IMG/VR virus record: IMGVR_UViG_2660238524_000005
DNA length: 47,221 nt
Direction: 5' to 3' (one strand)
DNA from: a virus
Taxonomy: Duplodnaviria > Heunggongvirae > Uroviricota > Caudoviricetes
The notes beneath the pieces were generated by a model that was not told the DNA's origin, made no database searches, and worked only from the letters and a program-made list of their open reading frames with translations. The number at the start of each line of letters is the position of its first letter. Within the stretch, counting starts at the first letter, position 1. Below, piece after piece: positions 15,159-19,636 of the stretch. The position numbers and the translations under genes are program-made.

Positions 15159-15176
15159 TTAAGATGAGAAAGATAC

Positions 15177-15590
15177 CTACACAGTATCTTTCTCAATTTG
15201 TTCAAATTTTGGTAATGGATTTGCTGTACTATTTTTTCCTATATTGATCATTATTTCCACAGTTGCTTCTCGAGAGCGTAGCAGCTTTTGCCTAAACTCA
15301 TCAGTGGTATATTTCGATGCTAATTGCTTATCAATGGTCTCGAGATCTCGGAGGCATTGCTTTCTTTTTGCTGCATCTTCTGGTGATTCAAGTCCATGAC
15401 GTGCAATTACCCAGCAAAGTATATATGTCAGGATTGCCGAAATAAGAGGTATTATTAAATATAGTAATTTCGCAAGGTTTGAATTGGCATCAGGTACGCA
15501 AAATGTTACCAGACCTGACAAAATGATCCCAAAACCGCCAGTAGAGAGGGTTGAAGTGACTGGGCTAGTTGGTTTTTTTTCATCAGACAT
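15177..15590 (-). CDS. Small membrane protein (two predicted TM helices + helical tail)
   Basis: Start ATG overlaps upstream stop (ATGTCTGA); hydrophobic segments GGFGIILSGLVTFCV and LLYLIIPLISAILTYILCWVIA. Confidence 0.55.
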   Translation of the reverse strand: MSDEKKPTSPVTSTLSTGGFGIILSGLVTFCVPDANSNLAKLLYLIIPLISAILTYILCWVIARHGLESPEDAAKRKQCLRDLETIDKQLASKYTTDEFRQKLLRSREATVEIMINIGKNSTANPLPKFEQIEKDTV

Positions 15591-15846
15591 TTGAACTGGT
15601 GCCGTCATTCGTTGCTTCTTCTATCAGTTGAACGATAGTTTTGCTTTTGTCTTTAGGCATGACAATAGTGATTGACCGCTTATCGTTGGTGACTTCATCG
15701 ACAAAAACAAACTCAAACTTACGAACAGGGAATAACCTCCGCCATAGTAAAGCGGATGCAGCGTATGAGAAGCGAAACAGGAGAGGTGATATCATGATCA
15801 CCCCTATCCACATCGCGAGTTCTATGATCTGCTGGGTTAACATCAT
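15583..15846 (-). CDS. Small membrane protein (one predicted TM helix)
   Basis: 87 aa; hydrophobic stretch LAMWIGVIMISPLLF; SD AGGA before ATG. Confidence 0.5.
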   Translation of the reverse strand: MMLTQQIIELAMWIGVIMISPLLFRFSYAASALLWRRLFPVRKFEFVFVDEVTNDKRSITIVMPKDKSKTIVQLIEEATNDGTSSNV

Positions 15847-15852
15847 TCCTGT

Positions 15853-16716
15853 TTAAGCTGGTCGTCTACGTTTAACTTTTTTGATAGCATAACGGTTTGT
15901 TACGCCACGCGCAGTAAATGTTTTTGTTGTTTCTAAATCAACAACATAAAGGTCCTCTTTTGAAAATTGTACTGTTGCAGCCTGAACCTGCGAAAGGAAA
16001 ACATTGTCATCTAGGCTTACTGAATGTTCTTCACCAAGATAATCAATTCGCCATCCCTTATTCCCTTCAAAGTTTACTTGAATGAATCTGACGTTAACCT
16101 CATCAATAGAAACTTCTTTTTCTAGTAAAGTACCACGTGGTAGTGGTTTGATTTCTTCAGTTTCTTCTCCTTCAAGCTTGAGAATCTCTTCTCCATTATC
16201 ATCAGTAATTTTGAAGATCGGGCGCTCTTTACCATCTAGTGGTGCTCTAACTACGTTAACTAAGGCTTGTCGTATTTCGGGATCAGTCACTAACTTTGCA
16301 ACAGCCTCATGACAAATAATTTCTTCTCCATCAAGTTCTAATACTGCTTCTTGTGTGTCGACCTTTCGAGTAACAGAAATAACCTTTCTACTCCCCAATT
16401 GTCGAATCAATGCAAGAGCTGAGCCACCAGCTAATGCACCACCAGCAACAGTGAGTCCAATTGCTTTGGCGACATCGACAGCATGAGGAACTAACTCTTG
16501 CATTGAATAAATAACACCGATTGATCCAGGTGCAGCAGGAGCGGTAACCATCAATTTGACTGTTTCCTGCCCATCATTAAGATTTCGATCCGCCTTTGCA
16601 ATAAGGTCAGCCATAGACCCTATTGATAAACTTAGTGTTTTTGCATCAATCTTATGCTGTGCTAATTCTTCATCTTCGGCATCATAGAAGACTTTGAAAG
16701 TGGTAGAACTATCCAA
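15853..16716 (-). CDS. Hypothetical soluble protein, first gene of reverse-strand cargo operon
   Basis: 287 aa, acidic, no TM segments or recognisable catalytic motifs; AT-rich; opposite to flanking late genes. Confidence 0.6.
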   Translation of the reverse strand: MDSSTTFKVFYDAEDEELAQHKIDAKTLSLSIGSMADLIAKADRNLNDGQETVKLMVTAPAAPGSIGVIYSMQELVPHAVDVAKAIGLTVAGGALAGGSALALIRQLGSRKVISVTRKVDTQEAVLELDGEEIICHEAVAKLVTDPEIRQALVNVVRAPLDGKERPIFKITDDNGEEILKLEGEETEEIKPLPRGTLLEKEVSIDEVNVRFIQVNFEGNKGWRIDYLGEEHSVSLDDNVFLSQVQAATVQFSKEDLYVVDLETTKTFTARGVTNRYAIKKVKRRRPA

Positions 16717-16844
16717 TTTTGCCTCAGTTTATTTTTAATTCTATCCTGTAGACTTAAATTAACGTGAAAGAGATGAAAAATCACTAACGCGGTCCGCATT
16801 TTTTCATTTAGCATGTTAAGAGTGGTTACTTCGCCACACAACTT

Positions 16845-16870
16845 AAACCCGCCGCTGAGCGGTTTTTTTG
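16845..16870 (+). terminator. Weak intrinsic terminator (possible tR'-like element downstream of Q)
   Basis: CCGC cgctga GCGG followed by T7; plus orientation. Confidence 0.35.
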
Positions 16871-16967: not shown

Positions 16968-17195
16968 ATGTTAACCAGAAGGGAAAAAGACATGCTAAAA
17001 CAGCAAGATATGACAGAAACCGCCGCCGCAGTCCTTCATTTCTTACCTGCTGACAAGTGGGTAACGCCACGCATGATGACGAGAACTACCGGAGTAAGCG
17101 AAGCCCGGTGCCAGTTAATACTGACTCAGTTAGTTCTGGCGGGTCTGGCGAAGGATAACGGCGGGTACGGGAATAAATTCAGACGCTGCCAGTAA
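16968..17195 (+). CDS. Small hypothetical protein, possibly winged-helix
   Basis: 75-aa ORF upstream of the methyltransferase; weak call. Confidence 0.3.
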   Translation: MLTRREKDMLKQQDMTETAAAVLHFLPADKWVTPRMMTRTTGVSEARCQLILTQLVLAGLAKDNGGYGNKFRRCQ

Positions 17196-17345: not shown

Positions 17346-18398
17346 ATGAAAAATACTGTAAAAATAAACAGTGTTGATTTAATCAACGCTGATTGCCTGC
17401 ATTTTATTCAGTCCCTGCCTGATGATTCCATTGACCTGATTGTTACCGATCCGCCTTACTTCAAGGTGAAACCCAACGGCTGGGACAATCAGTGGAAAGG
17501 GGACGAAGATTACCTTAAGTGGCTGGACCACTGTCTGGCCCAGTTCTGGCGGGTGTTGAAACCTGCCGGAAGCCTTTACCTGTTCTGTGGGCATCGCCTG
17601 GCATCTGATATTGAGATCATGATGCGTGAACGTTTCAACGTGCTTAACCATATCATCTGGGCGAAGCCGTCCGGACGTTGGAATGGGTGTAATAAAGAAA
17701 GTCTGCGCGCATATTTTCCTGCCACAGAGCGCGTTCTGTTTGCTGAACATTACCAGGGGCCATATCGCGGCAAAAGTGACGGCTATGCGGCAAAAGAAAG
17801 GGAACTCAAACAGCACATAATGGCACCGCTGATATCGTATTTCAGGGATGCTCGTGCCGAACTGGGTATAACGGCAAAACAAATTGCCGAAGCCACAGGT
17901 AAGAAAAATATGGTTTCCCACTGGTTTGGTGCCAGTCAGTGGCAGTTGCCGAATGAGGCTGACTATCGGAAGTTACAGGCACTGTTTTCCCGTATAGCGG
18001 CAGAGAAGTTTCAGGAACAACAACTGGAACAACCACACCACCAACTGGTGGCATCTTATGATTCACTGAATCGTAAATATTCTGAATTGCTGGATGAGTT
18101 TAAATCTCTCCGGCGCTATTTCTCCGTATCAGTCTCCGTGCCTTATACCGATGTCTGGATGCATAAACCCGTTCAGTTCTACCCGGGTAAACATCCGTGT
18201 GAGAAACCGGCGGATATGCTCAGGCAAATAATCAATGCCAGTAGTCGACCTGGTGATCTGGTTGCTGATTTTTTTATGGGATCCGGTTCCACAATAAAAG
18301 CAGCAATGGCGTTGGGGCGTCGGGCCTTAGGTGTTGAGCTTGAGTCAGAGCGGTTTAACCAGACAGTGAAAGAGATAAACGAGCTGGTGGGGAAATAA
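17346..18398 (+). CDS. DNA methyltransferase (beta-class N6A/N4C, DPPY motif)
   Basis: Motif IV DPPY near N-terminus and motif I FxGSGST near C-terminus; no adjacent restriction enzyme. Confidence 0.85.
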
Positions 18399-18465
18399 TC
18401 TGGTGGCCACGTCAGGTGGCCTTTTTATTTCCATTACACAGCACCCGCATCTGCGAGGTGGGGTT

Positions 18466-18681
18466 ATGAAATCCATGGATAAGTTAACAACGGGTGTCGC
18501 CTATGGCACCTCAGCAGGTAGTGCCGGGTACTGGTTTTTACAGTTGCTCGATAAAGTCACGCCCTCACAGTGGGCGGCAATTGGAGTGCTGGGTAGTCTG
18601 GTATTTGGCTTGCTGACGTATCTGACAAACCTTTATTTCAAGATTAAAGAAGATAAGCGTAAGGCTGCGAGAGGTGAATAA
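18466..18681 (+). CDS. S: Pinholin S21-type holin with dual-start motif
   Basis: [29 protein letters not shown]...[23 protein letters not shown] closely resembles phage 21 S21 (from memory); Met1 and Met4 dual start. Confidence 0.85.
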
Positions 18682-19178
18682 TGTCGCCATCATTACGCAA
18701 GGCTGTTGCTGCTGCTATTGGTGGTGGGGCAATTGCTATAGCATCTGTGTTAATCACTGGCCCAAGTGGTGACGATGGTCTGGAAGGTGTTAGCCACATA
18801 CCATACAAAGATATTGTTGGTGTATGGACTGTATGTTACGGACACACCGGAAAAGACATCATGCTAGGTAAAACGTATACCGAAGCAGAATGCAAAGCCC
18901 TCCTGAATAAAGACCTTGCCACGGTCGCCAGACAAATTAACCCGTACATCAAAGTCGATATACCGGAAACAACGCGCGGCGCTCTTTACTCGTTCGTTTA
19001 CAACGTGGGTGCTGGCAATTTCAGAACATCGACGCTTCTTCGCAAAATAAACCAGGGCGATATCAAAGGCGCATGTGATCAGCTACGTCGCTGGACATAT
19101 GCTGGCGGTAAGCAATGGAAAGGACTGATGACTCGTCGGGAGATTGAGCGTGAAGTCTGTTTGTGGGGGCAGAAATGA
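18681..19178 (+). CDS. R: SAR endolysin (R21-type lysozyme with N-terminal signal-anchor-release domain)
   Basis: Gly/Ala-rich weakly hydrophobic N-terminus [18 protein letters not shown], then lysozyme catalytic region; overlaps holin stop (TAATG). Confidence 0.9.
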
Positions 19179-19636
19179 GCAGATTAACCGCGATTATCTC
19201 CGCTCTGGTTATCTGCATCATCGTCTGCCTGTCATGGGCTGCTAATCATTACCGTGATAACGCCATGACTTACAAAGAGCAGCGCGACAAAAACACCAGA
19301 GAACTGAAACTGGCGAACGCCACCATCAAAGACATGCAGATCCGCCAGCGTGATGTAGCGGCTCTGGATGCCAAATACACGAAGGACTTAGCTGATGCTA
19401 AAAAGCAGCTTGATGATTTGCAGCGTTGTGTTCGCACTGGCAAGTGTGGGCTGCACTTCAACGCCAGATGTCCCGCGAATGGAGCGACCAGCACCGGCAG
19501 CTTGGGCGATGTTACCAGCCCCCGACTTAATGACTCCGCTGAACGGGATTATTTCACCCTTAGAGAGCGAATCGTCACAGTGACTAAACAGATTAGTTAT
19601 CTGCAGAACTATATCGTCACCCAGTGCATTATGTAG
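19175..19636 (+). CDS. Rz: Rz i-spanin
   Basis: N-terminal TM segment then coiled-coil region; ATG overlaps endolysin stop (ATGA). Confidence 0.8.
19395..19583 (+). CDS. Rz1: Rz1 o-spanin lipoprotein embedded in the +1 frame of Rz
   Basis: Signal peptide with lipobox-like LASVGC, proline-rich mature part ([24 protein letters not shown]). Confidence 0.6.

Follow-up and report, generated by a model that had tools for sequence, protein, structure and literature searches.

Within the defense gene database PADLOC, the family PDC-S42 is a single-gene candidate that was defined by its embedding in BREX, DISARM or type I restriction-modification (RM-I) loci (10.1101/2024.01.29.577857). Another point of reference is provided by the RexAB-type systems, namely RexA/RexB of phage lambda, RexABpp of Pseudomonas putida, gp30/31 of Sbash and gp44/43 of CarolAnn, in which a prophage-borne and presumably lysogen-expressed operon encodes a cytoplasmic protein of ~280-290 amino acids (aa) together with one or more small inner-membrane proteins. 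In Kiwa, the membrane protein KwaA acts as trigger or anchor, and the cytoplasmic DNA-binding protein KwaB is the effector. Here, we analyzed a three-gene cassette on the minus strand of a 47,221-nucleotide (nt) stretch of viral DNA (Caudoviricetes; IMG/VR record IMGVR_UViG_2660238524_000005), which is referred to as the window in the following. The cassette comprises gene A (15853-16716), gene B (15583-15846) and gene C (15177-15590), and the three minus-strand open reading frames (ORFs) are present at the coordinates given in an initial annotation of this DNA. Based on its sequence and on the genomic contexts of its relatives, we consider it, with a probability of about 50%, to be a prophage- and plasmid-borne defense or exclusion cassette, in which A would carry the core activity and B and C would be membrane partners.

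The family membership of protein A (287 aa) is the first piece of evidence. The PADLOC model PDC-S42 (PDLC05015) matched A end to end, with an E value of 9.8e-33 over residues 3-287 of 287, and it also matched 31 of 31 diverse relatives of A (best E value 4e-92). A is thus a member of this family, with which it shares the length of ~290 aa and a single architecture. In addition, A scored 207.5 bits against NCBIfam NF053583 (“LAPAL motif-containing putative phage structural protein”; model positions 1-292), which is above the NCBI curated cut-off of 60 and makes it a member there as well, and it matched phrog_3243, a family of unknown function, with an E value of 2.7e-61. The initial annotation had been unable to place any of the three products in a known family, which these matches refute for A. 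Its proposed comparison with defense databases gave a divided result in PADLOC, since A matched PDC-S42 whereas B and C matched no model; neither of the two small proteins had a match in Pfam, PHROGs or NCBIfam either. Pfam contained nothing for A, and some of its distant relatives showed an N-terminal similarity to DUF7946 that stayed below the threshold (20 bits, cut-off 27). Sequence searches of the PDB with A alone and with the family profile returned noise only, and none of Pfam, NCBIfam and the PDB showed a similarity of the cassette to a known toxin, antitoxin or virulence factor. The family comprises 2023 representatives at 50% clustering, and the best 150 matches are mostly ~280-320 aa long. 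As the family of A has already been catalogued as a candidate, the cassette is not a new category.

The cassette differs from PDC-S42 as catalogued in that A is not a single gene but the first of a three-gene operon in a lambdoid prophage. Conserved B and C genes follow A here, in Klebsiella and Pseudomonas prophages and on megaplasmids, and the trio is conserved down to an identity of A of ~31-36%. Gene A starts with a TTG codon 6 nt past GAGG, and the PGAP annotation uses the same TTG. The 87-aa product of gene B has a single hydrophobic helix at its N-terminus and ends in a small tail. For gene C, an alternative ATG is located upstream at 15608 (ORF 15177-15608); however, M7 of this longer ORF is a methionine conserved in all homologues, so that C probably starts at 15590 and encodes 137 aa. 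Given this start, the ATG of C overlaps the stop codon of B in ATGTCTGA, exactly as the overlap had first been described, and a diverged E. coli allele carries an ATGA overlap at the same B/C junction. B and C would be translationally coupled to each other. The three ORFs are not chance ORFs, as they form a syntenic trio that is kept in Klebsiella, Pseudomonas and other loci, and purifying selection acts on all of them. In a comparison of four alleles and one Pseudomonas relative, synonymous sites were saturated (proportion of synonymous differences, pS, 0.60-0.84), whereas the proportion of nonsynonymous differences was well below (0.10-0.47 for A, 0.22-0.58 for B and 0.18-0.59 for C). PGAP did not annotate gene B in several RefSeq records (L001, L002 and L018), although its conservation extends from E. 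coli to Pseudomonas.

The GC content of the cassette is 0.40, compared to 0.50 for the window and 0.48-0.57 for the flanks, in agreement with the AT-rich block noted initially. Its 3' boundary is marked by a 13-bp hairpin at 15165-15195 (not assigned to a strand; -17.5 kcal/mol, z = -5.3), which spans the stop codon of C and starts 7 nt past the stop codon of Q. Hairpins are found at the same position in L019 and L003, two further alleles, and are not homologous to it. The structure looks like a bidirectional terminator, and the possession of its own 3' hairpin argues for the cassette as a separate transcription unit.

The second piece of evidence is the position of the cassette. On one side, it is flanked by the Q antiterminator gene (PF06530; 14793-15158, plus strand), with which it is convergent. 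On the other side, a conserved block, CGCGGTCCGCA...GTGTTAAGAGTGGTTACTTCGCCACACA, extends over 16776-16850 on the plus strand, and a GC hairpin with a T-run comes after it at 16851-16870. The region 16776-16850 was almost invariant in an alignment of five alleles, and 16776-16870 is common to all E. coli and Klebsiella alleles regardless of which cassette allele adjoins it. Homology to sequenced lambdoid phages resumes at ~16776-16815. Presumably, 16776-16870 represents the Q-binding site, the late promoter and a short leader terminator for this type of Q. Reading the conserved block as the late promoter places the cassette between Q and its target promoter, outside the late transcript and divergent from the late operon. 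The genes had originally been described as reverse-strand genes inside the late region; their location behind Q on the opposite strand is correct, but they are not within the late transcript, as the cassette lies upstream of the 16776-16870 block. The allele-specific region upstream of A (16717-16775, minus strand) is expected to hold the cassette promoter, and its only positionally conserved feature is an A/T-rich -10-like element near 16753-16762. The native promoter that the initial annotation had proposed for 16717-16850 is thus a putative one. Rfam contained no RNA family within or around the cassette.

The distribution of the trio provides the third piece of evidence. Among 5426 complete E. 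coli genomes, the identical cassette was present in 12 and any allele of it in 63. We examined four E. coli records, each representing one allele class, and all of them have the cassette in the same slot on the reverse strand behind Q. The A alleles of E. coli share between 57% and 100% protein identity while their flanks are mostly 90-99% identical, and several alleles are saturated at synonymous sites despite the conserved flanks. Klebsiella lambdoid prophages carry the trio in the same post-Q slot, with an A that is 58% identical. In a Pseudomonas lambdoid prophage (L024), an S24 cI-like repressor gene and a CsrA-like gene precede A-B-C, which corresponds to the rexAB position. The trio is also found downstream of helix-turn-helix (HTH) repressors in a P2-like prophage of P. 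aeruginosa, and an HTH repressor lies upstream of it in an element that may be Mu-like or associated with a transposon. Outside of any phage, it is carried by P. aeruginosa megaplasmids such as pBM413. A tblastn search of 50,697 phage genome records with A as query gave no match. In all contexts that were examined, the GC content of A was lower than the locus average, which, together with the patchy carriage in E. coli, gives signs of horizontal acquisition.

Several individual records deserve mention in this context. In pBM413 (L031), the one megaplasmid record examined, the trio (308, 84 and 139 aa) occupies 81163-82739 and adjoins an IS26/IS6100 resistance region; tblastn matched A in 30 Pseudomonas plasmid records, the megaplasmids being ~370-460 kb in size. 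Deposited as “plasmid pOHT76-1_1” of E. coli SZQ1, the 43,337-bp circular record NZ_CP174001.1 (L030) is a lambdoid phage genome and probably a circularized phage rather than a plasmid. It contains an identical A-B-C behind Q (38667-40206) next to a nin region (ybcN-ninE-ybcO-rusA-ylcG) unlike that of the window, and hence the cassette moves between phage backbones. An enterobacterial-type A-B-C, with an A of 69% identity, was present in a contig assigned to the Gram-positive “Vagococcus sp. WN89Y” (L010, NZ_JBQPOM010000057.1), which is likely a contamination or mis-binning. A search for related loci with the closer alignment yielded a single locus, probably a contaminant.

Taken together, the origin of PDC-S42 in defense-locus embedding, the patchy and multi-allelic spread, the low GC content, the carriage by plasmids and the absence from phage genomes argue for accessory immunity and not for a virion or lysis function. 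The abortive-infection or exclusion module proposed in the initial annotation therefore fits the PDC-S42 membership, the cargo slots and the patchy carriage, all of them computational findings, but PDC-S42 itself is a candidate. According to the reading that we favor, the cassette would be an autonomous accessory (moron) operon, most likely expressed in the lysogen, and it would ward off other phages by exclusion or by aborting their infection. The argument for expression in the lysogen is the orientation of the cassette, which is located on the repressor strand or opposite to the lytic genes in four types of prophages.

Regarding the division of labor within the cassette, the distant members of the family are informative. 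At 21-26% identity, A occurs alone, with no credible membrane ORF downstream; in one distant member, a single 70-aa transmembrane (TM) protein takes the place of B and C. The existence of relatives with A alone suggests that A probably carries the core activity and that B and C are membrane partners. The neighborhoods of these distant members are diverse. One A adjoins an AAA_15 ATPase, an RM-I S subunit and an HD protein, one is located near AbiEii, and one adjoins HigBA and Gp49-HTH toxin-antitoxin (TA) pairs, whereas two are found among ordinary genes. With regard to embedding in or next to defense systems, the picture is divided: RM-I S, AbiEii and TA neighbors occur near some distant relatives, and in the window, the cassette occupies a prophage slot between Q and the late promoter instead. 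In a locus of an uncultured bacterium (L011, 3433-5379), a distant A and a 70-aa TM protein directly follow a LexA-like gene (LexA_DNA_bind and S24) and lie upstream of atpD, an arrangement that may reflect SOS-linked expression.

The predicted structure of A gives some indications of what its activity could be. An AlphaFold2 model built from 27 sequences (pLDDT 83, pTM 0.67) shows an N-terminal alpha/beta domain (residues 1-75), a mixed middle domain and a C-terminal OB-like beta-barrel (residues 197-285). Residues 86-104 form a Gly/Ala-rich hydrophobic stretch (Kyte-Doolittle value 1.78) that is of low confidence in the model. The position of this stretch is conserved in the 31 diverse relatives, in most of which it is the most hydrophobic part, and it is borderline for a TM helix, with a median 19-mer Kyte-Doolittle value of 1.5 and 11 of the 31 relatives reaching 1.6. 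The description of the first product as acidic holds (pI 4.97), and that as soluble is right in part, since the conserved hydrophobic stretch speaks against plain solubility. Y11, D12, H21, G64, S65, G87, R149, P159, W222, D237 and F240 are invariant or nearly so across the family. No enzymatic motif and no recognizable enzyme domain was found in A; a Ser-His-Asp-type site composed of D12, H21 and S65 was considered and dropped, because H21 is replaced in several relatives. As for the two small proteins, Kyte-Doolittle analysis confirmed one hydrophobic helix in B and two in C. The tail of B that follows its single TM helix is predicted to be probably cytoplasmic, and an AlphaFold2 model of C of modest quality (pLDDT 63) comprises helices at residues 11-31 and 38-65, followed by a helical hairpin. 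We infer that B and C are small inner-membrane partners with cytoplasmic tails. Under the favored reading, A would provide the core activity and probably the sensing too, with single-stranded nucleic acid or a phage protein as a possible ligand of the OB-like barrel. In a putative A-B-C complex, B and C would either tether A at the membrane, at the site of phage DNA entry, or turn the activation of A into membrane damage.

A more far-reaching version, to which we give somewhat less than even odds, would make A-B-C a new and widespread anti-phage system of prophages, plasmids and defense islands with a mechanism unlike that of Rex. In this case, A would represent a combination of folds that is without a solved relative, consisting of the alpha/beta domain, a glycine-zipper-like segment and the OB-like barrel. 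B and C would hold A at the inner membrane, the OB domain would recognize incoming or replicating phage nucleic acid, and A would then insert into the membrane or oligomerize via its hydrophobic segment.

A number of observations weigh against the assignment as a defense or exclusion cassette. PDC-S42 is one of 145 PADLOC candidates that are listed as untested (10.1101/2024.01.29.577857), and we found no paper mentioning PDC-S42, the LAPAL motif, NF053583, phrog_3243, DUF7946 or the WP accessions. None of the defense hidden Markov models of PADLOC matched B or C. The orientation of the cassette is the one argument for its expression in the lysogen, and a promoter scan gave matches that were no commoner than in shuffled sequence. 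Furthermore, some distant relatives are located among housekeeping genes, and two others lie next to lysis functions. In L013 (6001-8097), a distant A and B-like and C-like genes are followed by a GH108 endolysin gene on the same strand, and in L026 (8001-9492), a distant A is part of a phage operon, directly upstream of a partial lysozyme-like gene on the same strand.

Among the alternatives, a strict Rex-type abortive infection has the most in its favor. In such a mechanism, A would sense a phage replication intermediate and activate an ion channel formed by B and C, upon which the membrane would be depolarized and the infection aborted. The combination of one ~290-aa cytoplasmic protein with small membrane proteins matches the Rex layout, the sizes are near those of RexA (279 aa) and RexB (144 aa), and the trio of the Pseudomonas prophage L024 lies behind a cI-like repressor gene, in the position of rexAB. 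Moreover, systems are known that act like Rex but share little or no detectable sequence similarity with the lambda proteins (PMC12894663). However, none of the features by which Rex membership can be tested was found in the cassette. It encodes no DNA-binding protein that resembles RexA in sequence or fold, and in place of a RexB-like effector with four TM helices there are B with one and C with two. The location behind Q differs from that of an immunity operon behind cI, which applies to L024 alone. Comparisons with RexA and RexB using hhalign yielded probabilities of 0.2-0.3% (0.3% for C with RexB), on which ground we rejected a homology of A, B or C to Rex and which agrees with the initial view that the sequences are not Rex-like. 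The likeness is one of layout, plus that of position in one relative. The same annotation had also suggested that the cassette follows the logic of Rex; this is correct for the layout, but a sensor/effector logic is weakened by the distant relatives with A alone and no downstream membrane ORF. As these imply that A is more than a sensor, we rank strict Rex lower than an arrangement with B and C as anchor or trigger of A, and regard it as unlikely. By analogy, the logic of Kiwa, with a membrane partner as trigger or anchor and a cytoplasmic, possibly nucleic-acid-binding protein as effector, may fit the A-only relatives better. This likeness does not extend to the sequences, as no Kiwa model of PADLOC-DB matched A, B or C, A had no match in Pfam to the KwaB domain DUF4868 and the domain content is unlike.

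Slightly less probable still is an exclusion at the entry step, by which a complex of B and C with docked A would block DNA injection or passage through the inner membrane without killing the cell. Many prophage superinfection exclusion systems consist of small membrane proteins, and the cassette provides two of them with predicted cytoplasmic tails, on a prophage and on the strand opposite to the lytic genes. Besides the existence of A-only relatives, what argues against this alternative is that a large and strongly conserved protein with an OB-like domain is atypical of such exclusion proteins, and that neither a signal peptide nor a periplasmic domain is evident. We judge it about equally improbable that the trio is cargo with no role in defense against phages, be it for lysogenic conversion (envelope stress or host interaction) or as an addiction module of the TA type. 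Morons of the region between Q and S include many non-defense genes, the trio is carried by megaplasmids and TA systems adjoin some relatives. In contrast, the family was picked up through its embedding in BREX, DISARM and RM-I loci, the searches for known toxins, antitoxins and virulence factors were negative, and the recurrent siting next to phage repressors fits a competition between phages better.

Finally, a lysis-associated or virion-structural role of A, B and C, as suggested by the label of NF053583, by the site of the cassette beside the lysis genes of lambdoid prophages, by the distant relatives L013 and L026 and by the holin-like size of B and C, is very improbable, since the cassette has a terminator of its own and is located upstream of the late promoter on the other strand rather than being co-transcribed with an endolysin gene, the phage already has a full set of holin, endolysin and spanin genes elsewhere (holin, lysozyme and spanin at 18403-19636), B and C matched no holin family in Pfam, PHROGs or NCBIfam, and the trio occurs on megaplasmids and A-only relatives in chromosomal non-phage loci. 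The absence of A from the 50,697 sequenced phage genomes makes a structural role in particular unlikely. We therefore rejected the structural reading of A, albeit on the indirect grounds of genomic context and absence from sequenced phages; A is located outside the structural module on the reverse strand, has homologues on plasmids and in non-phage loci, and the name “structural” is thus unsupported.

Downstream of the leader terminator, the late operon of the window contains a 75-aa ORF and a DNA methyltransferase gene, followed by the holin, lysozyme and spanin genes. The 75-aa ORF (16968-17195, plus strand) is conserved, belongs to phrog_331 and shows weak Ren-like and MarR-like similarity. 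The best match of the promoter scan falls within this conserved ORF and was not accepted. The methyltransferase gene (17346-18398, plus strand) encodes an N6/N4 enzyme. Together, the two genes constitute a second cargo position within the late operon, between the leader terminator and the holin gene. In the O103-type prophage L018, the methylase gene is frameshifted and tRNA genes are located just downstream, and in L019, the more diverged allele, this site is occupied by tRNA genes without a methylase gene.

Returning to the proposed defense or exclusion cassette, hundreds of comparable candidates exist, and there is no sign here of an unusual mechanism. If the cassette does defend, one of the 145 candidates of PADLOC would be validated, and this candidate would work as a three-gene system in mobile elements of Proteobacteria instead of as a single gene. 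Such a result would also correct the misleading RefSeq name “putative phage structural protein”, which is spreading through E. coli annotations, and the analysis flags the small gene B, which is often missed by PGAP. With a family size of about 2000 clusters at 50% identity, any phenotype would be widely applicable. Overall, the cassette would then provide an example of a membrane-coupled system that resembles Rex without being related to it and that is found in the classic slots of exclusion genes, behind cI and behind Q.

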